Source: Alphaproteobacteria bacterium
GTDB taxonomy: Bacteria; Pseudomonadota; Alphaproteobacteria; UBA1280; UBA6503
Direction: 5' to 3'
Assembly: GCA_021774615.1 (NCBI GenBank)
Contig: JAJFIW010000003.1
Span: 7,867 to 71,866, forward strand
DNA: 64,000 nt
The notes beneath the pieces were generated by a model that saw only the letters and a list, made by a program, of their open reading frames with translations, had not been told where the DNA came from and searched no databases. The position numbers were made by a program, and so were the translations under genes. This document shows, piece by piece, positions 413 to 36,555 of this stretch (the stretch's first letter is position 1; the number at the start of each line of letters is the position of its first letter).

Positions 413-504
413 GGGACTTTTTCCTGTTTTATTTTAGCTATATAACGACGGTAGTATATCACCAGTTATCTTGTTGTGGACTATAAAAATATATTGAAGT
501 GCGA

Positions 505-612
505 AGCACCTTCGACATTCCGAGTCGCCGCAAGGCGAGAGGTTGTCGACAGTCTGCGGAACGCAGCACCAAGCATCTGGCTTTGCCAGTGCGCAGGTGG
601 ATTAAAAAATTG
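505..612 (-). repeat. about 100-nt structured repeat, copy A; directly abuts the 3' end and T-run of rnpB
   Basis: Minus strand reads ATTTTTTAATCCACCTGCGCACTGGCAAAGCCAGATGCTTGGTGCTGCGTTCCGCAGACTGTCGACAACCTCTCGCCTTGCGGCGACTCGGAATG... It is about 80% identical to 8605-8705 on the plus strand. The first hairpin shows compensatory changes: CTGGC/GCCAG here versus TAGGC/GCCTA in copy B. Confidence 0.5.
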
Positions 613-958
613 CAGTTCGCCGATAAGCCGGGTTTTGTCGAGAGCTGTCATTCATCTATGGTAAATGTTGCCATTTACCTTTAGCGACCTACCCGAACGC
701 CTCCTACAAGGGGCAGTCAAACAGCGTTCCTATTTGGTCTTGCACCAGATGGGGTTTTGCGTGCCTTGGGCTGTTACCAGCCAAGCGGTGGGCTCTTACC
801 CCGACCTTTTCACCCTTACCTACCAAAGGCAGGCGGTATATTTTCTGTGCCACTTTCCCTAGGGTTACCCCCGCCAGACGTTATCTGGCATCTTCCTTTA
901 TGGTGCCCGGACTTTCCTCGTTTATGTAAACACAAACGCGACAACTTAGCGAACTGCC
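605..958 (-). ncRNA. rnpB: RNase P RNA, bacterial type A
   Basis: Minus-strand reading contains GAGGAAAGTCCGGGCACCATAAAGGAAGATGCCAGATAACGTCTGGCGGGGGTAACC...GGTAAGGGTGAAAAGGTCGGGGTAAGAGCCCACC...GGTAACAGCCCAAGGCACG...ACCCGGCTTATCGGCGAACTGCAA. These are universally conserved RNase P blocks. P1 pairing is GCAGTTCGC (5', ~957) with GCGAACTGC (3', ~620-612). Ends are approximate to about 5 nt. Confidence 0.85.
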
Positions 959-1025
959 CTTTTTTATTAGCATATTAATAAAACAAGTACTGCAAAAAAA
1001 TGTGGTTTAGTTTAAACTAAAGGGT

Positions 1026-1739
1026 ATGGGACAAGAAAATACACAACAAGTAGAACTACCAGACTATATCCTACGCCGCACCGACCGCAGGCGTAGTGTC
1101 GCCATTTTGGTGTTGGCCGATGGCAGCCTAGAGGTACGTGCGCCACAACGAGTTAGCCAACGTTTTATCGAGGAATTTATCGTAGAGCGGATGGACTGGA
1201 TCGAGCGCAAAAAAAACGAGCGCAAAAAACGCCCCCAAACAGCTGCCCGCACATGGCAAACTGGCGATATATTTTATTTAACAGGGCAACCCTACCAGCT
1301 AATAGTTAAACCTAGTAGCCGTGTGTCGGTAGAGGTTAGCGACGGTGCTTTGGTTCTTTACCAAACCGACCCTACCAACACCGAACGAGTACGCCATAAC
1401 CTAATGCAATGGTACAAAGAACAAGCCGAGCAAGAATTTAAACCTCGCCTTGCAAGGTTTGCCAACGGCATGGAAGAGAAAATCCCCGAGCTTATCATCA
1501 GCAATGCTAAGCAACGCTGGGGGAGCTGTCAGGCTAAAAAACGGATTATCCGTTTGTCGGTACGGCTGTTGATGGCATCAAAAGAAGTGCAAGACTACGT
1601 AATTATCCACGAGCTAGCCCACCTAAAGCATATGGACCACTCGTCCGACTTTTGGGGCAGGGTCGCCCAGTTCTGCAAAAACTGGAAACAGCTAGAAGAA
1701 ACCCTAGGCCACCATGCGCAGTTGTGGCGGTTTGATTAA
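1026..1739 (+). CDS. YgjP-like (DUF45) / M48-family metal-dependent hydrolase
   Basis: 237-aa ORF with a C-terminal HELAHLKHMDHS (HExxH zinc motif) typical of the DUF45/SprT-like family. An RBS-like GGGTATGGG lies upstream. Confidence 0.7.
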   Translation: MGQENTQQVELPDYILRRTDRRRSVAILVLADGSLEVRAPQRVSQRFIEEFIVERMDWIERKKNERKKRPQTAARTWQTGDIFYLTGQPYQLIVKPSSRVSVEVSDGALVLYQTDPTNTERVRHNLMQWYKEQAEQEFKPRLARFANGMEEKIPELIISNAKQRWGSCQAKKRIIRLSVRLLMASKEVQDYVIIHELAHLKHMDHSSDFWGRVAQFCKNWKQLEETLGHHAQLWRFD

Positions 1740-3169
1740 TTAACTGCTGTTGCTAATTTTTTCGAGCTTCCCGCAAGCATACTTACACCATAAAAAACAA
1801 CCAGCCCCAACAACAAAGCAGGGATTGGTGAGCCAAAGTTATATGGTATCTCGAAAAGATTAAACTCGTGCGCTAGTTGGAACGAGAAGCCTGTTAACAT
1901 CCCAGAAATTGCGCCAGATGTGGTTGCTTTGTCCCAATACAGTGGGCCAATCAGAGGAATAAGCAGTAGTGTTGCAAGACCAACTCCTTTACTTGCTAAC
2001 ATAATAATTGGGCCTTGGCTTTCAGGGAGTAGAGCAAGAACTGTAATAACAGCTACCAACACAATTACTAAATAACGCCCTAAGAGCTTACCTTTATGGG
2101 GGTTAAGTTTATTTGTCATGGCAGGGCGGATGATATCGCGGGTAAATACCGACGAAACCGTTAAAAGTTGTGAATCTGTAGTAGACATCCCTGCTGCAAA
2201 AGTTGTTAAGACTAATAATGGTACTGCCCATGGTAAGTAGGTTGCAAATAGGGTTGGTACAAGCTTGTCCGAGTCCTCTAACCCTGTAACAAAGCCAATG
2301 CTTAATACCCCAATAATAACAGTCGCAACTGCAATTATAGAAACAATAAAAGCTTGGTAATAGATCGATTGGGCAAAGTCTTTTGCAGTTTTTGCCATAT
2401 AGGTGCGTTGCCACATATGGGGTAGTAGCAAAAAGCCTAAAATCCAAGAAAAACCAATAGTTATCGGAAAGCCCATGTTTTGGCTATCCATAACAAATAA
2501 GTCTGGTCGTGCTGCAACCGAGTTTTGTAACCCTGTTATTAGCCCGCCTGATGCATAAATGGCAATCCCTGCAGAAATAATAACAACAGCTAAAAATAAA
2601 GCACCTTGGATCCAGTCGGTTAAAATGATGGCGCGCATCCCGCCCAAAAAAACATAAAATGCAGCAACAGCTCCTGCTGTGATTACTGCCATTTCATAGG
2701 AGATAATACTATTGGTAGCACCCTCAACAACTTTACCAATAGCAATAACTTGGATAAGCACATAAGGCACTAAAGATACTATCGAGATAATTGCTACCAT
2801 ATAGCCAATTGGCTTATTTTTATAAAAATCTACCAGAAGTTCCGCAGGGGTAATGTAGTTGTTCTGACTCGAGATAAGCCATAATTTGCGCCCAATAAAC
2901 CATAAAAGAAAGAGCCCAGCTAAAGTAAAGAAAATAACCCCAAAACCCCAAGCAACACCTTTAGAATAGTAAAACCCTGGCGACCCTAAAAAGGCAAATG
3001 TGCTAAACCATGTAGCAAAAGTTGTTACAGCAAGGTGCTTAGAAGAAAGCGTTCTGCTTGCTAAAAAATAGTCGGTAACAGTATCTAAACTGCTTTTATT
3101 AGCACGAAAACCTAGGTAAACGATTAATAATATATAAGCTACTATCGTTGCGATGACTGCTGTAATCAT
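1736..3169 (-). CDS. sodium:solute symporter (SSS) family transporter
   Basis: 477-aa polytopic membrane protein with about 12-13 predicted helices and the SSS-family pattern. The DUF4212-like small subunit lies immediately upstream. Confidence 0.8.
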   Translation of the reverse strand: MITAVIATIVAYILLIVYLGFRANKSSLDTVTDYFLASRTLSSKHLAVTTFATWFSTFAFLGSPGFYYSKGVAWGFGVIFFTLAGLFLLWFIGRKLWLISSQNNYITPAELLVDFYKNKPIGYMVAIISIVSLVPYVLIQVIAIGKVVEGATNSIISYEMAVITAGAVAAFYVFLGGMRAIILTDWIQGALFLAVVIISAGIAIYASGGLITGLQNSVAARPDLFVMDSQNMGFPITIGFSWILGFLLLPHMWQRTYMAKTAKDFAQSIYYQAFIVSIIAVATVIIGVLSIGFVTGLEDSDKLVPTLFATYLPWAVPLLVLTTFAAGMSTTDSQLLTVSSVFTRDIIRPAMTNKLNPHKGKLLGRYLVIVLVAVITVLALLPESQGPIIMLASKGVGLATLLLIPLIGPLYWDKATTSGAISGMLTGFSFQLAHEFNLFEIPYNFGSPIPALLLGLVVFYGVSMLAGSSKKLATAVN

Positions 3170-3174
3170 GTTTC

Positions 3175-3456
3175 TTACCTTATAGAACTATTAGAGTTGT
3201 CTTGTGCATCGAACTTTTCTGCCCATGGTTTAAAAAGTATTTTATGAGCATAAACAGCAAGAGCCAGAAAAGAAAAAATAAAGCCAAAAATTAAATAAAT
3301 GGTTAGAGGTATTCCTGCAATTTCTTGCCCCTCTGCACCTAAAACACCAACCATTGTTAGTACCATTACAGCAACATATAGTGCAAAATAATAGGCGACC
3401 TTTTTGTTGTTGCAAGCTAGTTCTTTGTCTTGTGATAAAATTTGATCTTTAATCAT
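3175..3456 (-). CDS. small two-helix membrane protein, DUF4212-like SSS-transporter accessory subunit
   Basis: 93 aa with two hydrophobic helices, translationally coupled to the SSS gene (6-nt gap). This pairing is typical of DUF4212 with an SSS permease. Confidence 0.5.
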   Translation of the reverse strand: MIKDQILSQDKELACNNKKVAYYFALYVAVMVLTMVGVLGAEGQEIAGIPLTIYLIFGFIFSFLALAVYAHKILFKPWAEKFDAQDNSNSSIR

Positions 3457-3642
3457 GATTAGCCCTAATTTGGTCGTGATATATGATATTTCGAGCTTAA
3501 TATAGACTATATTATTGTTTTCTCAAGGTATAAATAATGCTGCTGTATTAGTTAAAATTTGCTTTGCATCTGAACCCATCCTTGGATACACTCGGAAATT
3601 GTAATAGTAGATAACGCAATGTTCCGAGACCGACAATAATAA

Positions 3643-4071
3643 ATGATTTATAAACTCCGCTTAGTGTTTGACTATCCTCTTGCATTACAAGAGGTTTCTC
3701 GTTGGTCTAAGCTACGGTTAGTGATGGTGCACCATTTGCTGGCAGTTGGGTTTTTTTTGCACCCATATACTTTAGCTGCAACAGCTTTGTTGGCATCATT
3801 CTTGCTTGTATTTGAGAGTATAAAAGCCGAACCATACACAGCAGACAATATTCGTTTTGGTTGGCAACGTATTATACTGGCTATGGCCGTAAATTTTGCT
3901 TTTATGGGGCTACAAGCTAGTGGCGCTGCTGAAGTTTCGCACTGGTGGTGGGTATCTTTAGTGGGTATTACAGTTAGCTTGTACGATGGTTATTTAGTAT
4001 GGCATGGGATAACAGGTATTTTTTATATAAACATAAAGCGGAAGAAGGCTTATGTCGGCACGACTGATTAA
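3643..4071 (+). CDS. hypothetical integral membrane protein
   Basis: 142-aa ORF with three to four hydrophobic helices, overlapping the start of the downstream EAL gene by 20 nt. No recognisable motif. Confidence 0.35.
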   Translation: MIYKLRLVFDYPLALQEVSRWSKLRLVMVHHLLAVGFFLHPYTLAATALLASFLLVFESIKAEPYTADNIRFGWQRIILAMAVNFAFMGLQASGAAEVSHWWWVSLVGITVSLYDGYLVWHGITGIFYINIKRKKAYVGTTD

Positions 4072-6082
4072 TTTATTCTGGCTTGTTGTGCTTCTTGCAG
4101 GGGCATTGGTAGCTGGCGGTTGGCTGGCCGAAAAACTTATCCACCTTGAAGACAGGAATACAGACTACTGGCAATCACAGCTACAAGAAGCTAGTAAAGA
4201 GCAATCTAGTGTTATTAATAAATGGTTGGTAGACCAAATTAATATCTCTAAAGAAATTGCCAAAGACGATAGAATTTATAATTTCCTCAAAAAAGCTAAT
4301 GATAGCGGGATGCTACCCCCTAAGGCTGAAGCAGTACGAGCTATACATGAATATGCAAAGCTAAAATATGGCCTTAACCATACATATTTATTTTCTAAAG
4401 ACGGTAGGCTGCTTTTATTCCAAGAAAATGCTAGAGAACTACCGTTAAAAATCAGAAAAACTCTAGCGGCTGCATACCAAACAAACTTGGATAGGTATTC
4501 ATTTATTTCCTTGGTTGATCATAAGAAGTGGTTGTTTGTTTCGTCTCGAGTTAAGCAAGACAATAAAAACCTTGGCTATGTAGTCTATATGATCGAGGTT
4601 AGCGCCGCTGCTAATATTCTAAAAGATAGCTCTTTTCGTTGGAGATATGTTGATTTTAACCTCGCACGCCGCAATGGCGATGATGGTGTTTTTATTATTA
4701 ATTGGGGTGAAAATAAAACTAGTGCCTTTTTATATAAATTATCCCAGATAGAAATACCTCTGTTTAATGGTAAAGCTGAAGAATTTGGTCTTTATAAATT
4801 ACCAAATGGCCAGGAACGGTTTATGTTTACCTCGATTATACCAGAATTTCCATTTTGGCAGCATGTTGGCTCTGTCCAGCTTGATGTTGCATATGAGCAA
4901 GTAAACAAAACACGTAATTTTTATTTGCTTAGTGCAGCTGTAGTTTTATTGTTCTTACTTACATTAGTAGCAAGGATTATGGGGCGGATTATCAACCCTG
5001 TAGCGCCTTTATTCCCTAGTTATATAACTAAAATTACTGGGAACAAAACCAAGCATACACCAGCCCCACAAAAGCAACCACAGAGTATGAAACCACAAGA
5101 ATTATTCAAAAAAATACGTGTTGCATTTACTGGTAGTAAGTCTCGGACTCTTTCAGAAGAAGAAAAAGAACTAATAAAGAAAAGAAACCAGCCACCGCAA
5201 CAAGAGCCTGCTACTAAAACAAAGCCAGCTGCTAAAGTTGAACCGGTACAAATTGCTAAAGAAGAACCAGCAGTAGCTACAAAGGTAGAAGAGCCTATAA
5301 TTGCACAGACCGAAGAAGAAAAAGCAGAAGCTGCCGAAAGAGAACAAATAAAACAAATCCATAGATGTATCGAAAATGAGCGTTTCCGTCTTTACTTCCA
5401 ATCCATTCTTGAAACAAAGAACAAGAAAAAGGTAATGTTCGAAACCTTATTGCGCTTGGTTTCAGATAATGGTGATTTGATGCAACCTAACGAATTCATC
5501 CCCTTGGCATTTAAACACAATTTTATTGACCAAATTGACGACATGGTAATTATTGCCTCATTAAGAAGGCATATGGAAATATTGTCTCAGGGTAAAGATA
5601 TTATGCTTAGCATAAACTTGTCTTATGGCGCATTTAGTAGCGTAAACTTTAAAAATACTTTTAAAGAAGGGCTCGATAGCGGGAAAATTCGTCCTGATTT
5701 AATTAACTTCGAGCTAAGCTCTAAAGAAATAATAGAAGATGATGCCGCCATGGGTTTTGTAAGAGACATGCAAGCAAAAGGGGCTAGGTTCTCTGTGGAT
5801 TATTTTGGTAATAATAAGCAAACAGTAGAAGCGGCCAAAAAACTAAAGTTTAATTACATGAAAATTAATGCTCTTAGGTTTGATGGCCTAGACCGAGGCT
5901 TGCCCGAGCAAATAGAGAAATTTCAGGAGATTATCCTTGCAGGCCAAGAAAACAGCCTACCAATGATAGTAGAAAAAATAGAAAATAAAGCAGTGCTAGA
6001 TTTGTGCGAGAAGCTTAAAGTACCTTATGTGCAAGGTTTCTATTTAGACGAACCATCACCTAAATTAACGCTAGGTTGGTAA
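4052..6082 (+). CDS. membrane-anchored EAL-domain protein with partly degenerate motifs: two TM helices, a periplasmic domain, a K/E/P/A-rich linker and an EAL domain
   Basis: An N-terminal TM helix, a periplasmic domain of about 260 aa, a second TM helix, a low-complexity linker (about residues 330-450) and a C-terminal EAL fold. EAL-domain motifs are altered: YQPI is YFQSI here, EALLR is ETLLR, DDFGTGYSS is DYFGNN (second Asp lost), and the Glu of EGVE and the QG are retained. Confidence 0.75.
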   Translation: MSARLINLFWLVVLLAGALVAGGWLAEKLIHLEDRNTDYWQSQLQEASKEQSSVINKWLVDQINISKEIAKDDRIYNFLKKANDSGMLPPKAEAVRAIHEYAKLKYGLNHTYLFSKDGRLLLFQENARELPLKIRKTLAAAYQTNLDRYSFISLVDHKKWLFVSSRVKQDNKNLGYVVYMIEVSAAANILKDSSFRWRYVDFNLARRNGDDGVFIINWGENKTSAFLYKLSQIEIPLFNGKAEEFGLYKLPNGQERFMFTSIIPEFPFWQHVGSVQLDVAYEQVNKTRNFYLLSAAVVLLFLLTLVARIMGRIINPVAPLFPSYITKITGNKTKHTPAPQKQPQSMKPQELFKKIRVAFTGSKSRTLSEEEKELIKKRNQPPQQEPATKTKPAAKVEPVQIAKEEPAVATKVEEPIIAQTEEEKAEAAEREQIKQIHRCIENERFRLYFQSILETKNKKKVMFETLLRLVSDNGDLMQPNEFIPLAFKHNFIDQIDDMVIIASLRRHMEILSQGKDIMLSINLSYGAFSSVNFKNTFKEGLDSGKIRPDLINFELSSKEIIEDDAAMGFVRDMQAKGARFSVDYFGNNKQTVEAAKKLKFNYMKINALRFDGLDRGLPEQIEKFQEIILAGQENSLPMIVEKIENKAVLDLCEKLKVPYVQGFYLDEPSPKLTLGW

Positions 6083-6170
6083 AACTTAATAAATGTTGTA
6101 GAATATCTGTGTATAGCTGTTCCTTTAGGCGGAACTTGGCGACAACTTAAGATAAGGAAAGAGATTTTCT

Positions 6171-6440
6171 ATGGCAGAAGGTAAAAACACAGACGCTTCT
6201 AGTAAGGGCTCAGGGGTAAAGTCGCGCCGTAAAACACCACCAAAGTCTGACGCAGAGCTATACCAGCTGCCTGAATCTATTTTTACTAAATTTATCCGAG
6301 CCGAGCGCCGCCAAGACGAGCGAGAGCGCCTCGAAGACATCCAAGAGCAAAAGAAAGACTGGCAAAAAACACTAACTTTCTATGCTGTTGTTATGGTTCT
6401 GCTAGTTCTTTTGTCTATGTGGGGTCTTGTATGGAAGTGA
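6171..6440 (+). CDS. small tail-anchored protein, paralog 1
   Basis: 89 aa with a basic N-terminus, conserved ELYQLPES..FIRAERRQDE..R.....QEQK..W block and a single C-terminal TM helix. Paralogous to the next ORF; a GGAAAGAG RBS lies upstream. Confidence 0.5.
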   Translation: MAEGKNTDASSKGSGVKSRRKTPPKSDAELYQLPESIFTKFIRAERRQDERERLEDIQEQKKDWQKTLTFYAVVMVLLVLLSMWGLVWK

Positions 6441-6451
6441 GAATTTCTTAG

Positions 6452-6697
6452 ATGACAAAAAATAAAAAAACGACAAGCGCACGTCGTAAGTCTGGTACAA
6501 AGTCAGAGGCTGAGCTATACAAACTACCTAAATCCACCGTTGACGAATTCATCAAATCCGAACGCCGCCACGACGAACTAGACCGCATGCGCGAAGTCCA
6601 AGAGCAGAAACAGACTTGGCGTAGGACTATGTTTTTATGTGGACTTTTAAATCTTATTTTCCTGATATTAGCATACATTGGGTGGATGAATGGTTGA
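6452..6697 (+). CDS. small tail-anchored protein, paralog 2
   Basis: 81 aa sharing the ELYKLPKS..FIKSERRHDE..R.....QEQK..W block and C-terminal TM helix with 6171-6440. Stop overlaps the start of the GGDEF gene. Confidence 0.5.
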   Translation: MTKNKKTTSARRKSGTKSEAELYKLPKSTVDEFIKSERRHDELDRMREVQEQKQTWRRTMFLCGLLNLIFLILAYIGWMNG

Positions 6698-8366
6698 ACC
6701 ACGTAAACACTATATTGGCTGGGCACAGGCATTCTTTAGTGTGATGGTGTTATGGGGTATAAGTAATGTATTTATGAGTTACTCCACTCAAGTTCTAGAA
6801 GTCCATAAAATTATTTTTGCCTGTACAACTTTCACAAGTTGTTCTTTTTGTCTTCTTTTCTATGCAGGTAGCGGTAAGCTCTCTAAGGAAACCCTTCGTA
6901 GTATAGACACTTGGGCTTATGGCATAATTATGCTTATAAATTACTTTATTACACTTAATTTATTTAGTGTTGTTACAGCTACAGAAGCGAGTCTTTTACA
7001 AAGGTTTAGTGTTATTTTTAGCTTATTTAGTAGCTGGGTATTTCTTATGCGTAAGCCCAATAAATGGCAGCTGATTGGAGTCTTTGCAATTGCAATTGGT
7101 TTGCTTGTTATTTGCGATGCAATACCAGAAGAAAAAGCAATGACAGTTTATATTCTAATGTTCTTGGCAGGGGTATTTCAATCACTTCGCTTATTTGTTG
7201 CAGAATTTCATCGTCCTCATCAAAAAGCTGTAGAGACGAATGATATAAAATCGAGATGTCGTGTCATCGGATATATAATGTTTGTAATTACCTTAATTTT
7301 TGTGGGCATTACAGCAGGAGTAGCTTTTTTACAGTCCTCTGTTGTACCAGAGAATCGAATTCTGTTTCTTATCCAACCAGAAAATTTCTTTCACATGCCA
7401 AGTATTATAGCAGGTATGGTTATGGGAATATTTATTTACACACCTATTCGCTATCTTGAATTTGCGAGTACACATATAATTAAAACAGAGAACTATCTTA
7501 CTATTACATCTTTCTCATTCTTCTCTACACTCTTTTGGGAGTGGGCTACAATGCCCTTAACAGGTTTATCCTTAAAAGAGTTGTCTAATACGGATATCAT
7601 AGCTGGTGTCATAATTACAGCTGGGGCTCTGATTATGGCTCTAAGTAAGCTTAGGGAAATCAAGAAAGAGGATAATAGCTTTGGTAGCTATATCTACCTA
7701 GAAACCCAAAACCTCACAGCCGTAGACGACAGCCGAGAAATAACGGCGAATACACTGGAGCATTTCGGGGGTGATGTTGTAAAGGCAGCAGGGGCGTTGG
7801 ACGTACCACCTAGTGTTATTACTGCATTTTTAGACGATAAGGAAAAGGTACTAGCCTTTAAAAACCTGCCCGATATTGCCCGTATTTACCGCCATAAAGT
7901 AGCAGGTTGTGACGCTCTGACAGGGTTAATAAACCGAGCAGGGTTTATGATTACCCTGCGCAATGCGCCTGCAGAATTTAAAATTTTTAGTATTTTGTAC
8001 CTAGACCTAGATAAATTTAAACCCGTTAACGATACCCACGGCCACGATGCTGGTGACGAAGTTTTAAAAGCTGTCGCCAACCGTCTAGAAGAAGCATGCC
8101 CGACAGATGCGATTATAACTAGGATGGGAGGTGATGAATATTGCATAATACTCCCTAATTCTGACAAGAAAATGGCTGATAGTAAAGCAAACTATTTGCA
8201 ACAAGTCATAGCTAAACCATTCAAAATCAGAGGTATTGCAGAGAAAATAGAGATTGGCGCCTCAATTGGCATTGCAACCTACCCTAAAGACGGCAAAAAC
8301 GTAGAAAAACTCCTCACAATAGCTGATGGCAGCATGTACGGGGTTAAACATTTAAAAGATAATTAA
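6690..8366 (+). CDS. integral-membrane diguanylate cyclase (GGDEF domain, GGDEY variant)
   Basis: About 8 N-terminal TM helices followed by a C-terminal GGDEF fold: LDLDKFKPVNDTHGHDAGDEVL ... RMGGDEYCIIL. No RxxD I-site upstream of the GGDEY motif. Confidence 0.8.
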   Translation: MVEPRKHYIGWAQAFFSVMVLWGISNVFMSYSTQVLEVHKIIFACTTFTSCSFCLLFYAGSGKLSKETLRSIDTWAYGIIMLINYFITLNLFSVVTATEASLLQRFSVIFSLFSSWVFLMRKPNKWQLIGVFAIAIGLLVICDAIPEEKAMTVYILMFLAGVFQSLRLFVAEFHRPHQKAVETNDIKSRCRVIGYIMFVITLIFVGITAGVAFLQSSVVPENRILFLIQPENFFHMPSIIAGMVMGIFIYTPIRYLEFASTHIIKTENYLTITSFSFFSTLFWEWATMPLTGLSLKELSNTDIIAGVIITAGALIMALSKLREIKKEDNSFGSYIYLETQNLTAVDDSREITANTLEHFGGDVVKAAGALDVPPSVITAFLDDKEKVLAFKNLPDIARIYRHKVAGCDALTGLINRAGFMITLRNAPAEFKIFSILYLDLDKFKPVNDTHGHDAGDEVLKAVANRLEEACPTDAIITRMGGDEYCIILPNSDKKMADSKANYLQQVIAKPFKIRGIAEKIEIGASIGIATYPKDGKNVEKLLTIADGSMYGVKHLKDN

Positions 8367-8505
8367 GTGCAAAGTTAAACTACTATAACGTAACGTTACA
8401 TCTTTTAACAAAATGTTATAACAATTCGTTGTATTATAAAAATTGCCATAAAATACAACTACCCTAACCTATTGTTTTTATTTATAAAAACTAACTGGTA
8501 AAAGT

Positions 8506-8521
8506 TGGCACTATGCTTGCA
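8506..8521 (+). promoter_or_regulatory. sigma54 (-24/-12) promoter TGGCAC-N5-TTGCA
   Basis: TTGGCACTATGCTTGCA is an exact match to the RpoN consensus GG-N10-GC spacing. No ORF follows; a Rho-independent terminator lies about 65 nt downstream. Confidence 0.45.
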
Positions 8522-8584
8522 CCTATACTAACTATGTGACCTTGCTATTATTTTAGTGAAGTACCCGACACACACAAAACTTTT

Positions 8585-8612
8585 GAGCCGCAATTAGCGG
8601 CTCTTTTTTTTG
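8585..8612 (+). terminator. Rho-independent terminator
   Basis: GAGCCGCAATTAGCGGCTC stem-loop followed by TTTTTTTT. Confidence 0.7.
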
Positions 8613-8705
8613 GTTTTTAATCCACCTGCGGTTAGGCAAAAGCCTAACTCTTGGTGCTGCGTTGGGCAGACTGTCGACAACCTCTCGTCTAGCGGCGACT
8701 CGGGA
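8605..8705 (+). repeat. about 100-nt structured repeat, copy B; directly follows the terminator T-run
   Basis: TTTTTAATCCACCTGCGGTTAGGCAAAAGCCTAACTCTTGGTGCTGCGTTGGGCAGACTGTCGACAACCTCTCGTCTAGCGGCGACTCGGGATG. Inverted relative to copy A at 505-612. Confidence 0.5.
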
Positions 8706-8710
8706 TGTCT

Positions 8711-10078
8711 CTAGGCTTGCCATTTCTTAAGCTTACGGTCAAGCGCTGGGCGAGAGATATTTAGAATATCGCAGGTTTTGCCTTTATGGTTACCTGTTGC
8801 TTCTAGAACGTTTAAGATATGCGCTTTTTCTACTTCTTCTAAAGAAATAAGCTGTGTTGAGGCTGTAGGGGCTAGGTCAAGGTCTGTTGTGGCTGCGGCT
8901 GTTGGTAGGTTAGGGTTAATGTCTTCAACGTCTATGTATGCTTGCTGTGCGTGGGCTGCGGCTCTGGTTAAAACGTTCTCTAGCTCGCGGATATTGCCTG
9001 TCCAAGGTTGTGCTTTTAGTTGTGTCATACCATCTAAGGTAATCCCCTTAATGGTTTTACCTAGGCTGTGGTTAATCCGCATTAGTAAGTTGCTTACAAT
9101 CGCGGTGAAGTCAGACATCCGCTCTTTTAAAGTTGGGATGTAAATATCAATAACATCAAGGCGGTAAAATAAATCTTCACGGAACTTGCCCGCCGCTACC
9201 ATTTTGCGTAAATCCCGATGAGTCGCAGCAATAATCCTAGCGTTAGTAGTTAATGTTTTATTGCTACCTACACGCTCAAAGGTTTGCTCTTGTAATACTC
9301 GTAGTAATTTTGCTTGTAAATGTGGCGACATTTCGCCAATTTCGTCAAGGAACAAAGTGCCATTTTCAGCAATCTCGAAACGCCCTTGTTTGGCTTGGTC
9401 AGCACCTGTAAAAGCACCTTTTTCATGCCCAAAAAGTTCGCTCTCGAGCAATGTATCAACAATTGAGGCACAGTTTACAGCAACAAAAGGGCCTTTATGT
9501 TCGCCATGGCTATGAATGGCTTTTGCCACTAGCTCTTTACCTGTTCCTGATGCACCTTGGATAAGTACATTGGCAGTATTTTGGGTGGCAATAGCAATTT
9601 TTTTGCATACTTCAATCATCTCGGCGCTGCTGCCAGTAATTTCAGGGGTAGTATCTTCTTGGGAAGGCGCAGTATTTACCGTAGCTTTTTTAGTGTCAGC
9701 TTTAAGAGCATGGTGAATAATAGTATCAAGCTTTTGTAGGTCTATAGGCTTATGGACATAATCAAAAGCACCTGTTTTCATGGCAGTGATGACTAATTTC
9801 ATATCGTGAAAACCAGTAACCATTACAACTGGCCGCTGGTTGTTGTCTTCCAAGAGCCATTGCAATAATTTTAGACCATTTGTATCGGGCAAGTGTTGGT
9901 CAAGGAGAACAAGCTTACAAGCATTTGTATCTAAAAACTTTTTGGCTTCAGCGCCTGTGTGTGCAATGTGGGTTGTAAGGCCTATATCATCAATGTGTAG
10001 GCTTAGCATTTCAGACAAAGATTCATCATCGTCAATAATTAGAATGTCGCAGGTACTCATTATTGTGGTTGCTCCCAC
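8711..10078 (-). CDS. sigma54-dependent response regulator, NtrC/NtrX family (REC + AAA+ + Fis-type HTH)
   Basis: N-terminal receiver with ILIIDDDES and a phospho-acceptor Asp, an AAA+ domain with GASGTGKE and the ESELFGHEKGAFTGA (GAFTGA) motif, and a C-terminal HTH. Confidence 0.85.
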   Translation of the reverse strand: MGATTIMSTCDILIIDDDESLSEMLSLHIDDIGLTTHIAHTGAEAKKFLDTNACKLVLLDQHLPDTNGLKLLQWLLEDNNQRPVVMVTGFHDMKLVITAMKTGAFDYVHKPIDLQKLDTIIHHALKADTKKATVNTAPSQEDTTPEITGSSAEMIEVCKKIAIATQNTANVLIQGASGTGKELVAKAIHSHGEHKGPFVAVNCASIVDTLLESELFGHEKGAFTGADQAKQGRFEIAENGTLFLDEIGEMSPHLQAKLLRVLQEQTFERVGSNKTLTTNARIIAATHRDLRKMVAAGKFREDLFYRLDVIDIYIPTLKERMSDFTAIVSNLLMRINHSLGKTIKGITLDGMTQLKAQPWTGNIRELENVLTRAAAHAQQAYIDVEDINPNLPTAAATTDLDLAPTASTQLISLEEVEKAHILNVLEATGNHKGKTCDILNISRPALDRKLKKWQA

Positions 10079-12434: not shown

Positions 12435-13559
12435 ATGACAGCACTACCTAAAAAGAAAACAGGCGGACTTGCAGGCATTGTAGCAGGTCAAACAGCAATC
12501 TCATCGGCTGGCGGTGCCCACGAGCTGCGTTACCGTGGCTATAGCATTTATGATCTGGCCGAACATTGCACTTTTGAGGAAGTTGCCTATCTTGTTATTT
12601 ACGGTAAACTACCCGACAAAATTGACCTTACAGCATTTAACGAGCGTTTGCATAACGAGCGCGATATTCCAGACTCGCTAAAAGAAGTGCTGGAACGTAT
12701 CCCAGCTACAGCCCACCCTATGGACGTTTTGCGTACAGGGGTTAGCTTTCTAGGTAATATCGAACCCGAAACCACAACCCACGACCAATTCGCCATTACC
12801 GAGCGCTTGCTGGCATGTTTACCAAGCATGATGCTGTATTGGTGGCACTATACCCAAAAGGGCGAGAAAATAGAGTGCATTAGCGAGGCCGACGGCATCG
12901 CCGAACATTTCTTAACCCTGCTCCACGGTAAGTACCCGTCAGAGCTACATAAAAAGATGATGAATATATCGCTAACTCTTTATGCCGAGCACGAGTTTAA
13001 CGCTTCAACTTTCACTGGCCGTATTATTACCTCAACCTTGTCCGACTTTTACTCGGCAACAGTTGGCGCAATCGGTGCATTACGAGGGCCACTGCACGGC
13101 GGCGCAAACGAAGCCGCGATGGAGCTAATCGCAAGCTATCAAACTCCAGACGAAGCTAGCAAAGGCGTGCTAGATAAACTAGCCAAAAAAGAGCTAATAA
13201 TGGGCTTCGGGCATAGGGTTTATACCGAAGCTGACCCCCGTAACCGCGTAATCAAAGAGTGCTCACGCAAACTTGCAGCCGACCACGGCGACATGACCCT
13301 GTTCGACATTTCAGCAGCAATCGAAAAAGTGCTGTGGGACGAAAAACACATGTTCCCCAACCTAGATTTTTACTCGGCCAGCACCTATAACCTAATGGGC
13401 ATTCCAACTCCACTCTTTACCCCAATTTTCGTAATGAGCCGCATCAGCGGCTGGGCAGCCCACTTTATCGAACAACGCGCCAACAACAAACTAATCCGCC
13501 CCGGCGCCGACTACATCGGGCCAAGTGAATTACCGTTTGTGGCGTTGGAGAAGCGGTAG
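12435..13559 (+). CDS. prpC: 2-methylcitrate synthase
   Basis: 374 aa of the citrate synthase family (GFGHRVY, HGGANEAAM motifs) sitting between prpB and prpD. Confidence 0.85.
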   Translation: MTALPKKKTGGLAGIVAGQTAISSAGGAHELRYRGYSIYDLAEHCTFEEVAYLVIYGKLPDKIDLTAFNERLHNERDIPDSLKEVLERIPATAHPMDVLRTGVSFLGNIEPETTTHDQFAITERLLACLPSMMLYWWHYTQKGEKIECISEADGIAEHFLTLLHGKYPSELHKKMMNISLTLYAEHEFNASTFTGRIITSTLSDFYSATVGAIGALRGPLHGGANEAAMELIASYQTPDEASKGVLDKLAKKELIMGFGHRVYTEADPRNRVIKECSRKLAADHGDMTLFDISAAIEKVLWDEKHMFPNLDFYSASTYNLMGIPTPLFTPIFVMSRISGWAAHFIEQRANNKLIRPGADYIGPSELPFVALEKR

Positions 13560-13598
13560 ATAAAATAAAATAATTAATAGAAATAATAAGGAAATAGC

Positions 13599-15056
13599 AT
13601 GAGCAACCTAGCCCACAGCCTAACTGATGACAACACTCGTAAAGATTATGACGAGGTATTGATGAAAATTGCGGATTATGTTTGTGATTTTGTGCCTAGT
13701 TCGACGGAAGATTACGACACTGCTCGTAATTGTTTGATGGACACCCTTGGGTGTGGGTTTTTAGCGTTGAAGTTCCCGCAGTGCCAAGCAATGCTGGGGG
13801 CAGTGGTTGAGGGCGCAGACTTACCTATGGATAAGGGCGGCGTGCCAGTGCCGGGGACTTCCCATACACTTGACCCAATTAAAGCTGCGTTCGACATTGG
13901 CTGCATGGTGCGTTGGCTCGACTATAACGACACGTGGCTTGCTGCCGAGTGGGGGCATCCCAGCGACAACCTTGGTGCAATTTTAGCATCTTGCGACTAC
14001 ATGACCAGAACTGGCAAGAAAAACTATACTGTCCACGATGTGCTTACTTACATGATAAAATCCCATGAAATACAGGGTATTTTAGCACTAGAAAACAGCT
14101 TTAATAAAGTAGGGCTAGACCATGTGGTATTGGTTAAGGTGGCGTCTACTGCTGTTGCAACCCACATTATGGGTGGCACAAAACAACAAGTGCTTGATGC
14201 CGTAAGCCACGCATGGCTAGACGGGCAAAGCCTACGGACTTACCGCCATTCGCCAAATACAGGTAGCCGCAAAAGCTGGGCTGCGGGCGACGCTACCAGC
14301 CGTGCAGTACGCCTTGCATTAATTGTACTAAAAGGCGAAATGGGCTACCCAAGCGTGCTAACCGCACCTACTTGGGGCTTTTATGATGTGTTGTTTAAGG
14401 GTAAAGAGTTTAAATTCCAACGGGAGTTTTCTAGCTACGTAATGGAGAATATTCTATTTAAAATTAGCTTTCCTGCCGAGTTCCATAGCCAAACAGCAGT
14501 AGAAGCTGCGGTAAAACTGCATGATGTAGTTAAAAACCGCCTTGATGATATCGAACGGATTGAGCTAATAACCCACGAGGCCGCAATTCGGATTATTAGC
14601 AAGACTGGTGCACTCCATAACTTTGCCGACCGTGACCATTGCTTGCAATATATGGTGGCAGTGCCACTAATAAAAGGTAACCTTACCGAAGATGACTACT
14701 CGGACGAGGCAGCGTCTAACCCACAAATAGATGTTTTACGAGAAAAAATGGTAGTAAGTGAGGACAAACAATACTCGGTTGACTACCATGACCCCGAAAA
14801 ACGCAGCATTGCTAATGCTATCCAAATTTTCTTTACCAATGGCACAAGCAGCGAAAAAGTAGCGATTGAATACCCAATCGGCCACCGCCGCCGCCGAGAC
14901 GAGGGGATACCAGTGCTAGAAGAAAAGTTTAAACGTAACCTACGAGTTGTTTTTGACGATACCCAAGCCAACAACATTTTCGCACTGTGTAAAGACGTGG
15001 ATAGGCTGAATAAAACACTAGTAACAGACTTTAGCGAGATGCTTATTCGCAGATAA
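13599..15056 (+). CDS. prpD: 2-methylcitrate dehydratase
   Basis: 485-aa MmgE/PrpD-family protein in the prpBCD gene order. Confidence 0.85.
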   Translation: MSNLAHSLTDDNTRKDYDEVLMKIADYVCDFVPSSTEDYDTARNCLMDTLGCGFLALKFPQCQAMLGAVVEGADLPMDKGGVPVPGTSHTLDPIKAAFDIGCMVRWLDYNDTWLAAEWGHPSDNLGAILASCDYMTRTGKKNYTVHDVLTYMIKSHEIQGILALENSFNKVGLDHVVLVKVASTAVATHIMGGTKQQVLDAVSHAWLDGQSLRTYRHSPNTGSRKSWAAGDATSRAVRLALIVLKGEMGYPSVLTAPTWGFYDVLFKGKEFKFQREFSSYVMENILFKISFPAEFHSQTAVEAAVKLHDVVKNRLDDIERIELITHEAAIRIISKTGALHNFADRDHCLQYMVAVPLIKGNLTEDDYSDEAASNPQIDVLREKMVVSEDKQYSVDYHDPEKRSIANAIQIFFTNGTSSEKVAIEYPIGHRRRRDEGIPVLEEKFKRNLRVVFDDTQANNIFALCKDVDRLNKTLVTDFSEMLIRR

Positions 15057-29766: not shown

Positions 29767-29795
29767 AAGCCCAGCATTAGATGCTGGGCTTTAAT
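29767..29795. terminator. bidirectional Rho-independent terminator
   Basis: AAAGCCCAGCATTAGATGCTGGGCTTT. Confidence 0.5.
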
Positions 29796-29812
29796 AGTAA
29801 AACGTTAATAAG

Positions 29813-30058
29813 CTATTCTTTTTTCGGGAAGCATGCTTCCCGATGCTCAGGTTTGAGGTGTTCAACCTCAACCATTTCGCAAATCTTTGCTGTTGTTCTA
29901 TCTTCATGGGCATATTCCCAATACACCCAACTTACTGCATGGAACATGCCTATAATAAAGGCTATTCCAAGAGCTATGGATGCTAAGTTGATGCCGATTT
30001 TTTTTACTAAAGCTTCATTTCGGGCTAGTTTTGCTAAAGCTTCGTCTCGTGTAGACAT
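29813..30058 (-). CDS. hypothetical small membrane protein
   Basis: 81 aa with one hydrophobic helix (INLASIALGIAFIIGMFHAVSWVYW). No identifiable motif. Confidence 0.35.
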   Translation of the reverse strand: MSTRDEALAKLARNEALVKKIGINLASIALGIAFIIGMFHAVSWVYWEYAHEDRTTAKICEMVEVEHLKPEHREACFPKKE

Positions 30059-34419: not shown

Positions 34420-36555
34420 TTAAAATTTGAAAGATGCCTTAACTTGCCCAGTATGGCTTAAAAATTCGTCTTTAATCTGGGCATCATAACCAAATTGCAG
34501 AGTTATCATTTTATTTGCCGACTCAAAAGTAAAAGACGTACCTAGGTTAAGCGATTCTTCAGCTATTTGTACCTGTTGGTCAGACACAAACGCGCCACCA
34601 CCAAAAGCACGAGTGCTTTGTACTTCATCGCTAGCAAAGTCGTACATTAGGTTGGCATGTATTTCGGGGCGGTATGTATTCATATTGTATTTGTATGACC
34701 CCTCTAACCTAGCACCTATTTTACCTACCAAGGAATTTTTACTAGAGATAAGGTCTTGCACAGTGTTTACATTATCGCGCAGGGTAACTTTATCTTTGGT
34801 AATATGGGTGTAGTTTAAACCAGCCTCTGGGATAATATAAGTAGTATTTGCTACGTTAAACTTTTTACCAAACTTAATGTCAGCTCCATATTGATTGGTC
34901 GAGTAATCCCCCGACATCCGCCCAAAACCAAGTACATTTTGTGCTGTATTAACATCGTTAATACCAAAATGAACTGACCCTGTTATAAATGAGTCATCTA
35001 TTGTTTTGTCGCCATATAAAGCTAAAATATAGGTATTAACTTTAGCGTCAGAGTTTGCAAAGCTTTCGCCATTAATATCGGCATAGTTATAGCTAAATGC
35101 TAAGCCTGCACGGGTCCCTGTAGTAACTTCGTTATCGTAACCAATTGTGCCGCCAATGCTGTTGGCCTCGTAGCCTGCAATTCCTTTGCGTGCTCCTTGG
35201 TCAAGGGTGCTTGCAGTGCCTTGGAACCACATTTTATTATTTGCAGTAATATCACCTGCAGAAACACCTAAACTACCACCTCGTAAACTAGCAAGGCGAT
35301 TAGCAATACTTGTAGTAGTCACATGGAAAACTTCTGTCGCAGCATTGTTAATAGCACCTGCAACAACGTTTGCATCCCCTAGTTTGCCTACAGCTTCTTG
35401 AATTTGGGAGGGCGTACCAGCAACAGCAGTGTTTATAGCAGTTTGAACCGTAGCAGGAAGAGTAGCACCACTAGTAAGTTGGATTATTTTACCTGCATCA
35501 GTAGTGCTAACGCCTAAAGTTGTAGCAATTTGAGTTGTTGGTTTAGCAGCTCCTGCTGTAATTTCAACATTGGTACCATTAACAGCAACTGTGAAATTAC
35601 GAAACAAGTTATCAGCGTTAATGTTAGCTACATTTTCATCGGCATTACCAACTAGGTTATCAACTAGCACAACTGTCCCTGAACCAAAAGCAACATCAGG
35701 AATAACTGCAACATTACCTGTCATGTTTAAGGTTGTGCCTGTAAATACAGTTGTTGCATTAATAAATCCATCGCCAAGGTTAAGAGTACCCGTTTGTAAA
35801 GCAACGCTTGATAGGTCAACAGTTCCATTAAATGAAGCCGATGCCGCAGGGTTAGAAATATTAATTGTACCTGAATTATTTAGTATGCTTCCTGCCGTAA
35901 TGCCGTAAGTTCCTGCAGTTAGGTTGCCATTATTATTTATAATAGTGTTTGAAGTGGTAGCTAATGAATTTACAATAGAGGTTGTTCCACCAAGATCAAT
36001 CTGAGCAACAGCTGTAGCTGAATTACCAACCAAAGTAATACCTCCAGTTGTAATATCTCCTGAGACTAATAACGATGCATCTTTATCTGCTATTGTATTA
36101 TTAGATATAATAGTAATAAATCCTTCTCCAAGGTTTAGATCACCAGTAACATCAACAATAATGTCACTATTAGCTGCACCAAACCCACCTATTGCGGCTA
36201 TAGTTAAATTTAAATCCTGTCCAGTAGCTGCATTAATATTACCAATAACTTGTAAGGTTTGTGGCATAGCTACAGCTGATTGTAGTATGCTTAGGGATGA
36301 TGGCCCTGTATTGAAAAGCGTATTAATAGCATCAGGATCAACAGCTGTTTCACCAACAGTTCTATTGTTATCTATAAATATGGTTTCACCAGCGCCTGTA
36401 ATATTTAAATCTTTATTCTCATCACCAGCAATAAGTGGGGAATTAACAGCGAGCATCGCATCATCTACAACATCAGCAAAAGCTATGCTTGGCAAAGTGC
36501 TTATACCAATAAGAGCTGTTGTTGCTAGCAGTAGTGGCATTTGCTTAATTTTCAT
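34420..36555 (-). CDS. autotransporter (type Va) outer-membrane protein with T/N/G-rich passenger
   Basis: Signal peptide MKIKQMPLLLATTALIGISTLPSIAFA, a repetitive T/G/N/A-rich passenger of about 400 aa, and a C-terminal beta-barrel translocator ending ...GQVKASFKF (terminal aromatic residue). Confidence 0.75.
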   Translation of the reverse strand: MKIKQMPLLLATTALIGISTLPSIAFADVVDDAMLAVNSPLIAGDENKDLNITGAGETIFIDNNRTVGETAVDPDAINTLFNTGPSSLSILQSAVAMPQTLQVIGNINAATGQDLNLTIAAIGGFGAANSDIIVDVTGDLNLGEGFITIISNNTIADKDASLLVSGDITTGGITLVGNSATAVAQIDLGGTTSIVNSLATTSNTIINNNGNLTAGTYGITAGSILNNSGTINISNPAASASFNGTVDLSSVALQTGTLNLGDGFINATTVFTGTTLNMTGNVAVIPDVAFGSGTVVLVDNLVGNADENVANINADNLFRNFTVAVNGTNVEITAGAAKPTTQIATTLGVSTTDAGKIIQLTSGATLPATVQTAINTAVAGTPSQIQEAVGKLGDANVVAGAINNAATEVFHVTTTSIANRLASLRGGSLGVSAGDITANNKMWFQGTASTLDQGARKGIAGYEANSIGGTIGYDNEVTTGTRAGLAFSYNYADINGESFANSDAKVNTYILALYGDKTIDDSFITGSVHFGINDVNTAQNVLGFGRMSGDYSTNQYGADIKFGKKFNVANTTYIIPEAGLNYTHITKDKVTLRDNVNTVQDLISSKNSLVGKIGARLEGSYKYNMNTYRPEIHANLMYDFASDEVQSTRAFGGGAFVSDQQVQIAEESLNLGTSFTFESANKMITLQFGYDAQIKDEFLSHTGQVKASFKF

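Follow-up and report, generated by a model that had tools for sequence, protein, structure and literature searches.

Two inverted structured repeats beside rnpB as probable members of a lineage-specific, non-autonomous repeat family in an uncultured clade related to Alphaproteobacteria

By definition, a REP element is one palindrome of 20-40 nt that carries an unpaired GTAG or CGTC tag on one side (PMC3733652). The YPAL/RU-2 repeats of Yersinia, about 168 bp long, are intergenic, not A+T-rich and free of a terminal TA or terminal inverted repeats; they contain internal dyad symmetries, are co-transcribed with upstream genes, and show variable duplications of 3-26 bp at targets located at dyad symmetries (review PMC2229807). 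We analysed a stretch of 64,000 nucleotides (the window), in which the initial annotation had singled out an inverted pair of look-alike sequences, here called copies A and B. The evidence presented below makes it probable that both belong to a lineage-specific, non-autonomous family of structured repeats of the REP/BIME-ERIC-YPAL kind, whose host clade is uncultured and related to Alphaproteobacteria. The window features on which the argument draws are the following:

510 to 612, minus strand: copy A of the repeat unit, in the short form (T-rich linker, H1, H2 and H3), directly 3' of rnpB
8612 to 8710, plus strand: copy B of the repeat unit, also in the short form, flanked by a terminator T-run and by the stop codon of a convergent sigma-54 activator gene
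608 to 957, minus strand: rnpB (RNase P RNA, class A; Rfam RF00010, 314 bits)
497 to 511, minus strand: small hairpin GAAGGTGCTTCGCACTTC after copy A, from folding and a terminator-like scan; not the H4 of the family
8506 to 8611, plus strand: neighbouring module outside the repeat, running from a sigma-54-type promoter to an intrinsic terminator, from sequence and a terminator scan
8711 to 10078, minus strand: sigma-54 enhancer-binding response regulator (EBP; Pfam Sigma54_activat, Response_reg and HTH_8)

The pair is real: 510-612 on the minus strand and 8612-8710 on the plus strand are 85.4% identical over 96 nt in blastn, with a mean column identity of 80% over the padded stretch in MAFFT. 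A repeat search of the window recovers them as inverted arms at 514-584/8639-8709 (71 nt, 87% complementary), with a second arm pair at 582-608/8614-8640. All the shared sequence blocks named at the outset are present in both copies, and the 21-mer CAGACTGTCGACAACCTCTCG occurs in the window only at 536-556 on the minus strand and 8667-8687 on the plus strand, against a chance expectation of 0.01 matches. Copy A is matched by the family profile (nhmmer) at 510-609 and by the covariance model (CM R1) at 474-610 with 89.6 bits, copy B at 8613-8724 and at 8612-8738 with 72.8 bits, respectively. Even when its filters are switched off, the covariance model recovers A and B as the only copies in the 64-kb window; a candidate third copy at 29793-29886 (14 bits) was rejected as unrelated terminator-like hairpins. 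The minimum free energy fold of copy A places H1 at 567-599, H2 at 554-566 and H3 at 512-549, and that of copy B places the same hairpins at 8623-8656, 8657-8669 and 8676-8709. The compensatory difference claimed for the first hairpin is indeed seen, copy A reading CTGGC-AAA-GCCAG and copy B TTAGGC-AAAA-GCCTAA, and over all paired positions the two copies differ by three double substitutions and one single substitution. Single-base indels within H1 and H2 also distinguish members of the family, so that no reading frame is common to the whole family; the open reading frames overlapping the copies (476-664, 481-651 and 8553-8723) were rejected as protein-coding given the indels and the compensatory-pair variation.

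Each unit consists of a T-rich linker (about TTTTTAATA), H1 (loop GGC-AAA-GCC), H2 and a composite hairpin H3, which together make up the short form of about 100 nt; an optional fourth hairpin brings the long form to about 135 nt in total, the extension reading GTCCTAC, H4 and CAGTGCC in many copies. The units are G+C-rich and non-coding, the consensus of 14-15 units shows neither a closing helix nor a terminal inverted repeat, and the ends are the T-rich linker on one side and GGGAYNNCG or CAGTGCC on the other. A pseudoknot between the H2 loop and the 3' tail (GGCAC with GTGCC), seen by eye only, was dropped because its support is inconsistent among copies. Compensatory changes are found by RNAalifold in 15 of 20 predicted pairs. 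In an unfitted MAFFT alignment (A3) read against a hand-drawn structure, 85.2% of pair cells are paired versus 30-41% with slid partners, double substitutions occur in 26 of the 39 pairs, and the observed covariation score is reached by none of 500 shuffles. Comparisons at orthologous sites likewise yield more double than single changes, for instance seven versus two between L010_exo and L008_exo. These compensatory substitutions, including those between same-site orthologous copies, demonstrate that the hairpins of the family are maintained by selection, and compensatory change between same-site copies suggests a constraint still acting in place. The proposal of structural selection rather than recent duplication thus stands, with strong covariation over 14 units. 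G-U cells outnumber A-C cells by 18 to 9 in the orientation shared with rnpB and the small RNA discussed below (the E orientation), which provides weak evidence as to the strand.

Searches with the profile and the covariance model identified about 20 further units in related metagenome-assembled genomes, at both syntenic and unrelated loci, which supports the option of a REP/RPE-type repeat family raised in the initial annotation. Units were found by nhmmer in L005, L006, L008, L010 and L011, and the covariance model added L062. They are single or stand in arrays of two to three, such as the tandem array of three units at 4641-5017 in L010 and arrays of at least two units in L011 and L008, and all arrays seen are head-to-tail. 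As in dispersed repeat families generally, there are at least six independent intergenic sites, with both filled and empty orthologous sites:

Downstream of the small-RNA terminator beside the EBP gene: occupied in the window, L010 and L011
Spacer between peptidase S9 and tRNA-Met genes: occupied in L005, L006, L008 and L010
Spacer between DUF1294 and Exo genes: occupied in L008 and L010
3' end of rnpB: occupied in the window only
5' end of rnpB: occupied in L005 only
Spacer between PrpC and EAL genes: occupied in L062
After a secretin stop codon: a 32-nt remnant in L063 (7654-7685)

L006 lacks both the rnpB copy and the EBP copy, the EBP site is also empty in L005 and L008, and the number of units at one site varies from 0 to 3 between close relatives. 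Besides the L063 remnant, a partial copy lies at 4497-4548 in L006. The copy number of the family looks modest: the 64-kb window has two copies, and unbiased related DNA yielded one full copy and one remnant over about 80 kb. As to the lineage, PrpC and UvrB are about 70% and 65% identical, respectively, to proteins of Alphaproteobacteria metagenome-assembled genomes (named best hits). An exact scan of genome contigs of species representatives with the 19-mer GACTGTCGACAACCTCTCG returned only four chance matches in unrelated taxa, a two-block degenerate pattern gave 49 matches in metagenome contigs, none confirmed by the family profile (best E 0.019), and a pattern scan of viral contigs gave three chance matches only. 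Searches of plasmids and phages by blastn with an array and with copy A found nothing. Above the gathering score RNase P was the sole Rfam match, and permissive Rfam scans of copy A, copy B and the L010 array were at chance level on the units.

Contacts with gene ends are tight. Copy A starts at the 3' T-run of rnpB, as had been claimed, since Rfam places the RNase P RNA at 608-957 on the minus strand; the T-run merges into the linker of the unit. The hairpin at 497-511, beyond the far end of copy A, may have been left behind by a duplication of the rnpB 3' end. A degenerate copy of that end to the right of copy A had been suggested by eye, and was discarded as the flank-versus-flank alignment is not significant. 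Copy B does abut a terminator T-run, as proposed, and its other end meets the convergent EBP gene precisely at the stop codon (8711-8713). The assignment of that terminator to the GGDEF-domain gene is probably wrong, the hairpin at 8585-8603 lying 220 nt past the GGDEF stop codon at 8366. Ahead of the hairpin a sigma-54-type promoter (TGGCAC-N5-TTGCA) is found at 8506-8521, and the roughly 60 nt between this promoter and the terminator (8585-8603 plus T-run) carry a conserved GTACCCGA box. Five related genomes (L005, L006, L008, L010 and L011, the L011 sequence stopping at the module) retain the module from promoter to terminator, and in four of them (L005, L006, L008 and L010) no GGDEF-domain gene adjoins it. 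Because of this conservation in relatives without an adjacent GGDEF gene, the module's own promoter and the 220-nt gap, the terminator before copy B most likely ends a separate small transcript and not the GGDEF mRNA; the module at 8506-8611 is a candidate sigma-54-dependent small RNA. Elsewhere, units abut the 5' end of tRNA-Met in three genomes, the EAL stop codon at the L062 site, and the first 8 nt of rnpB or the duplicated 3' end of a protein gene at others. An outward sigma-70 promoter within the unit, considered as a driver of tRNA-Met, was rejected for want of an acceptable -35/-10 pair. In the E orientation, units at about five of eight sites come after the 3' end of a co-directional gene or RNA; to say that they always follow a terminator would be too strong.

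Several insertions are flanked by direct duplications of target DNA. They measure 73 nt at L010_exo, where they take in the final codons of the Exo gene together with its stop codon, 40 nt at L008_exo, 28 nt at L005_rnpB, where they span the rnpB -10 box and first 8 nt, and 16 nt at L005_pepS9; each of the four is significant (0 of 300 shuffles), and together they represent three independent sites. At seven other flank pairs no duplication was detectable, and none is seen at either window copy, at L062 or around arrays, so that the insertion signature rests on those three sites. To our knowledge, no classical transposase makes duplications as long and as variable as these (16-73 nt). The duplications could alternatively reflect Campbell-type recombination, or a tandem duplication that arose locally and was then partly deleted. 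Long, variable duplications that re-create gene ends are uncommon among small bacterial repeats and hint at an unusual insertion route.

We infer from these observations that the repeat would be a non-autonomous mobile or amplifying element, copies of which land in intergenic DNA at or adjoining gene ends and dyad symmetries. Several insertions would have produced a duplicated target stretch of variable and unusual length (16-73 nt), preserving an intact gene end on one side, and this would explain the tight abutment of units on genes; subsequent local multiplication would yield the head-to-tail arrays. Selection on the hairpins could come from a mobilisation machinery that recognises folded single strands, from a role at the RNA level, or from both. 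Copy A would have inserted at the terminator of rnpB, on the upstream side of the thiolase promoter, and copy B between the terminator of the putative sigma-54-dependent small transcript and the convergent activator stop codon; their inverted orientation and 8-kb spacing would be coincidental. If transcribed by read-through, both would supply stable 3' hairpins to the upstream transcripts and might act as stabilisers or insulators. About 250 kb of loci showed neither a transposase nor a RAYT or other partner gene, and no transposase domain occurs among the called genes of the relatives' loci.

The units could instead be multicopy structured small-RNA genes or conserved 3'-UTR modules kept for a host function, such as 3'-end protection, termination or insulation between convergent genes, or processing sites, and not mobile DNA, which we consider unlikely. 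The strong covariation, extending to orthologous copies, and the G-U excess on the strand co-oriented with rnpB and the small RNA would be expected of such elements, as would the location of both window copies directly 3' of a same-strand RNA gene. The copy at the L005 rnpB site is probably transcribed, because it lies behind a duplicate of the rnpB promoter and first 8 nt, and, should tRNA-Met lack a promoter of its own (none was found), transcription must pass through the units upstream of it. However, the units have no consistent promoter or terminator, their loops are short and tetraloop-like with no conserved single-stranded seed, their orientation relative to neighbouring genes is not uniform, and no Rfam family matches them, while variable occupancy and unit number (0-3) at the same site in close relatives, target duplications around some units and the existence of truncated remnants all speak against this reading. 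That structure is conserved in place at orthologous sites is nonetheless also compatible with an RNA element that benefits its host, as opposed to a selfish one.

Rather doubtful in our judgement is that the family represents a new type of mobile element, which would insert at the ends of protein and stable-RNA genes by way of a folded intermediate, a single strand of RNA or DNA, and regenerate the interrupted gene ends by long, variable duplications; if true, its mechanism would set it apart from known transposases, RAYTs and group II introns. Spread via an RNA or single-stranded copy, by retroposition-like or template-switch insertion and not by a cut-and-paste transposase, seems very unlikely: the long and variable duplications (16-73 nt), the missing terminal inverted repeats, the insertions at ends of highly transcribed RNA genes (rnpB, tRNA and small RNA) and the invariably A/T-rich unit end, which is A-rich on the reverse strand and kept in both partial copies, point that way, but the A-rich end is both short and impure, the folded strand is, from the G-U bias, more likely the opposite one, short and long forms stop at one discrete point after H3 instead of at random truncation points, and no reverse transcriptase was seen in the loci. 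That copies A and B represent the terminal inverted repeats, since diverged, of some transposon or island which delivered the 8-kb rnpB/c-di-GMP block, an option raised in the initial annotation, is extremely improbable: they are inverted and bracket 8 kb, and two genes of the block (the SSF symporter at 1736-3169 and the GGDEF gene at 6690-8366) are absent from relatives, yet the "block" contains the essential, single-copy rnpB and no transposase, units of the same family occur at unrelated sites both singly and in direct arrays, and the proposal fails because relatives retain the thiolase-rnpB-YgjP...EAL...EBP synteny without the repeats (with the small RNA and BolA also syntenic in relatives missing one or both copies), L006 keeping the neighbourhood with neither repeat and L005, L010 and L011 having one in one place only or in a different place.

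The favoured reading, a lineage-specific repeat family, is a fresh example of the familiar "junk-or-regulatory" class of bacterial repeats, not the ends of an 8-kb insertion, and alters no major open question. What it offers, for a poorly sampled clade related to Alphaproteobacteria, is a covariance-model-ready description of a structured repeat not previously described, a model that avoids mistaking units for small-RNA genes, terminators or transposon ends, and repeats that mark a rearrangement-prone neighbourhood around rnpB.

Compared with described systems, the family recalls the 113-bp tandem repeats behind E. coli rnpB, repeated DNA which starts inside the rnpB 3' end and re-duplicates the terminator region. 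In L066, Tandem Repeats Finder reports 3.5 copies of 113 bp at 1347-1739, overlapping the rnpB 3' end at 1717, which we take to be the E. coli repeat described in the early 1980s. That repeat is a local tandem array in which our covariance model finds no match, whereas the present family is dispersed. With ERIC/IRU, Correia/NEMIS, RUP and other bacterial MITEs it shares the size class of about 100-170 bp, non-coding and intergenic character, stable RNA folding and variable occupancy between strains, but it lacks their terminal inverted repeats, and its duplications of 16, 28, 40 and 73 nt differ from their fixed short ones (often TA). Like REP/BIME, the units are structured extragenic repeats, clustered into composite arrays and often found between convergent genes or after stop codons, with hairpins kept by compensatory change, and long-form units carry a reverse-strand GTAG (GTCCTAC) beside the H3 palindrome. 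They differ in having 100-135 nt and three to four distinct hairpins instead of a single 20-40-nt palindrome, in the confinement of the GTAG-like tag to long-form copies (it is missing from short forms, including both window copies), in head-to-tail arrays instead of inverted head-to-head or tail-to-tail dimers, and in a low copy density with no RAYT gene seen in the loci. These loci also contain separate, genuine CGTC-tagged REPs that fit the published description (PMC3733652), such as CGTCATTACACGC...GCGTGTAAT at about 1630-1660 in L010. From YPAL/RU-2, compared here by description only, the family departs in host lineage, in having three to four separate hairpins rather than one long palindrome, in duplications that reach 73 nt instead of 3-26 bp, and in the frequency of head-to-tail arrays. 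Both are nevertheless intergenic, not A+T-rich and free of terminal inverted repeats, with internal dyads, and both show target duplications of variable length (16-73 nt at three sites here) and targets at or adjoining dyad symmetries, those abutted by the present units being terminators, the P1 stem of rnpB and a tRNA end.

The two stretches that the initial annotation had described as an inverted pair are indeed similar: a repeat search of the window recovers inverted arms at 514-584/8639-8709 (71 nt, 87%) and 582-608/8614-8640, blastn aligns the two copies at 85.4% identity over 96 nt, and the 21-mer CAGACTGTCGACAACCTCTCG is common to both and occurs nowhere else, against a chance expectation of 0.01 matches. 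The units and their immediate surroundings are as follows.

510-612, minus strand: copy A, 3' of rnpB
608-957, minus strand: RNase P RNA (rnpB), Rfam
8367-8611, plus strand: candidate sigma-54-dependent small RNA
8506-8521, plus strand: its candidate promoter, TGGCAC-N5-TTGCA
8585-8603, followed by a T-run: its candidate terminator
8612-8710, plus strand: copy B
8711-10078, minus strand: sigma-54 enhancer-binding activator gene (EBP), stop codon 8711-8713

Given the Rfam placement of RNase P RNA, copy A starts at the rnpB 3' T-run, as had been proposed; copy B also follows an intrinsic terminator (the hairpin and T-run listed), but most likely that of a conserved small transcript and not of the GGDEF gene, and copy B's 3' limit is the stop codon of the convergent EBP gene. 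Both copies fold into three hairpins, and the compensatory differences noted earlier in the first hairpin are confirmed. R1, a covariance model of the repeat family, run over the whole 64-kb window with filters off, retrieves copies A and B as sole members; a 14-bit match near 29.8 kb was rejected as a third copy, consisting of unrelated hairpins. Read on the strand co-oriented with rnpB (E orientation), the unit comprises the parts below.

Linker (5' end): T-rich, about TTTTTAATA
H1: long stem with cap GGC-AAA-GCC
H2: CTGGGGGCACACCCCCAG in most relatives, CTGCGTTCCGCAG in the window
H3: outer stem, CC/GG step and inner stem TCGCC-UUGC-GGCGA
Long-form extension only: GTCCTAC, hairpin H4, CAGTGCC

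Copies A and B are both of the short form, ending right after H3, and the element has a G+C content of about 57% versus about 40% for the genome.

Copies A and B are members of a family and not an isolated pair. Syntenic contigs of related metagenome-assembled genomes (L005-L011), reached via homologues of the YgjP-like protein adjoining rnpB, were searched with a profile made from the copies and then with R1, yielding two units in L005, two to three in L006, three in L008, five in L010 (three of them forming a head-to-tail array) and at least two in L011. Two of four further same-clade loci, independently chosen, were also positive, one (L062) with a full copy and one (L063) with a 32-nt remnant. 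Searches of plasmids, phages and viral contigs yielded no family member, nor did pattern scans of species-representative genomes and JGI metagenomes, and no Rfam family matches the unit. Units occupy the following independent sites.

After the terminator of the conserved small transcript beside EBP: one unit in the window, three in L010, at least two in L011; none in L005, L006 and L008
Peptidase S9/tRNA-Met spacer: in three genomes the 5' end of the tRNA is abutted by the linker
DUF1294/Exo spacer
rnpB 3' end: window only; empty in L005 and L006
rnpB 5' end: L005 only
Immediately 3' of an EAL stop codon
Immediately 3' of a secretin stop codon: a remnant

What the sites share is that a unit closely adjoins the end of a gene or RNA gene; the orientation with respect to the neighbours varies. 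The spacer between the EBP gene and the small-RNA terminator seems to be a repeat hotspot: copy B's site is occupied by other short direct repeats in L005 (~13300-13560; TCTCATCCCAA(G/A)TTAAGA(T/C)GTAAAAA twice, among others) and in L008 (~5940-6250; AAAAAATTCATC(C/T)GAAAACG...CTTAAACTAATTTGAG twice).

Several comparisons show that the structure is constrained. Of 20 pairs predicted by RNAalifold, 15 have compensatory changes; when a five-helix structure specified by hand was scored on a plain MAFFT alignment fitted to no structure, 85.2% of pair cells were paired, versus 30-41% with partners slid by 1-3 columns, double substitutions were present in 26 of 39 pairs, and none of 500 shuffles reached the observed covariation. 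Double substitutions likewise predominate when units occupying one orthologous site are compared between genomes (seven double and two single changes between the Exo-site units of L010 and L008), so the structure is either kept in place or refreshed by conversion. Single-base indels inside H1 and H2 distinguish copies, so no reading frame is common to the whole family. The excess of G-U over A-C cells in the E orientation (18 versus 9) weakly hints that this is the folded strand.

Aligning 90 nt from each side of a unit or array and comparing scores with 300 shuffles revealed significant flank duplications in four cases at three independent sites, all direct; those at the Exo and rnpB sites flank single units.

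L010, Exo-site unit: 73 nt, 1699-1771 and 1857-1929
L008, Exo-site unit, same site as in L010: 40 nt, ~3265-3305 and ~3436-3475
L005, rnpB-site unit: 28 nt (rnpB -10 box and first 8 nt), ~8937-8964 and ~8767-8794
L005, peptidase-site unit: 16 nt

In the Exo_endo_phos and rnpB duplications one gene end is left intact and the other is a pseudo-end; in L010 the right copy is the true Exo_endo_phos end (its final codons, the stop codon and the 16 nt that follow) and the left copy the pseudo-end. Nothing significant was detected by this test at copies A and B, L062 or the arrays.

We consider it likely that the family is a non-autonomous, structure-dependent dispersed repeat, which would insert at gene ends and dyad symmetries or next to them, in some cases duplicating a long target stretch, and then expand into local arrays. 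Two reasons, not mutually exclusive, may account for the retention of its hairpins: the folded strand may be what a mobilising activity recognises, or the hairpins, once transcribed, may serve a purpose where transcripts end; read-through from rnpB and the sigma-54 small transcript would add the window hairpins to those RNAs, where a stabiliser or insulator role is conceivable. A multicopy sRNA or 3'-UTR module maintained by the host is an unlikely alternative, and spread by a retroposition-like route appears very improbable. That the copies are the ends of a transposon that delivered the 8-kb block, as their inverted arrangement had suggested, is scarcely credible: relatives that lack the repeats have the same thiolase-rnpB-YgjP...EAL...sRNA-EBP-BolA neighbourhood, and no mobility gene lies within the block.

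The candidate small RNA preceding copy B is convergent with the EBP gene and has a body of about 60 nt in which the GTACCCGA box is invariant; the repeated TGTAACG-N3-CGTTACA-like dyads upstream are probably where the activator binds. Six of six genomes have the module (the window, L005 ~13165-13285, L006 ~14335-14445 and the EBP downstream spacers of L008, L010 and L011), and Rfam searches with the window and L010 versions gave only sub-threshold suhB/mmgR (RF00519, 18.9 bits versus a cut-off of 41) and BjrC1505 matches. Separately, two groups of genomes carry the rnpB-YgjP pair in opposite orientations with respect to its flanks (window 608-1739 versus L008 9507-10633, L010 and L011): the window, L005 and L006 have the rnpB 3' end toward the thiolase gene, and L008, L010 and L011 have it toward the 125-aa/EAL genes, with YgjP beside the thiolase gene. 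The window's 142-aa/EAL module is inverted too relative to relatives, and no repeat could be linked to either inversion. The EAL-GGDEF spacer carries a 112-nt direct repeat (6241-6352 and 6498-6609, 71% identity, 257 nt apart). An ORF with an Lcl C-terminal domain (Legionella collagen-like protein family; 60448-61656, minus strand) and an autotransporter (34420-36555) are surface-protein genes amid an otherwise housekeeping stretch.

Among known systems, the family is not a classical MITE, since it has neither terminal inverted repeats nor a fixed short duplication. A REP, defined as a single tagged 20-40-nt palindrome in inverted dimers (PMC3733652), was rejected in the strict sense, although long-form units do resemble REPs in having GTAG beside H3 on the reverse strand. 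A separate small repeat in L010 (~1625-1660 and the EBP spacer, about 4520-4560; CGTC, ATTAC-stem, loop and GTAAT-stem, e.g. CGTCATTACACGCCTCCGAGCGTGTAATC) fits the description of the CGTC-tagged REPs typical of Alphaproteobacteria (PMC3733652). In E. coli K-12 (NC_000913.3, 3269846-3270238; L066), a 113-bp unit is repeated 3.5 times in tandem from inside the rnpB 3' end, an analogue of the duplicated rnpB ends that has no sequence kinship with the family. YPAL/RU-2 of Yersinia is reported to have targets at dyad symmetries and variable duplications of 3-26 bp (PMC2229807), whereas the duplications of the present family are longer. The repeat belongs to a well-known kind, the small structured intergenic repeats, of which it is a clade-restricted and undescribed member; its two more unusual features are duplications that are long and variable and the conservation of its structure in place.
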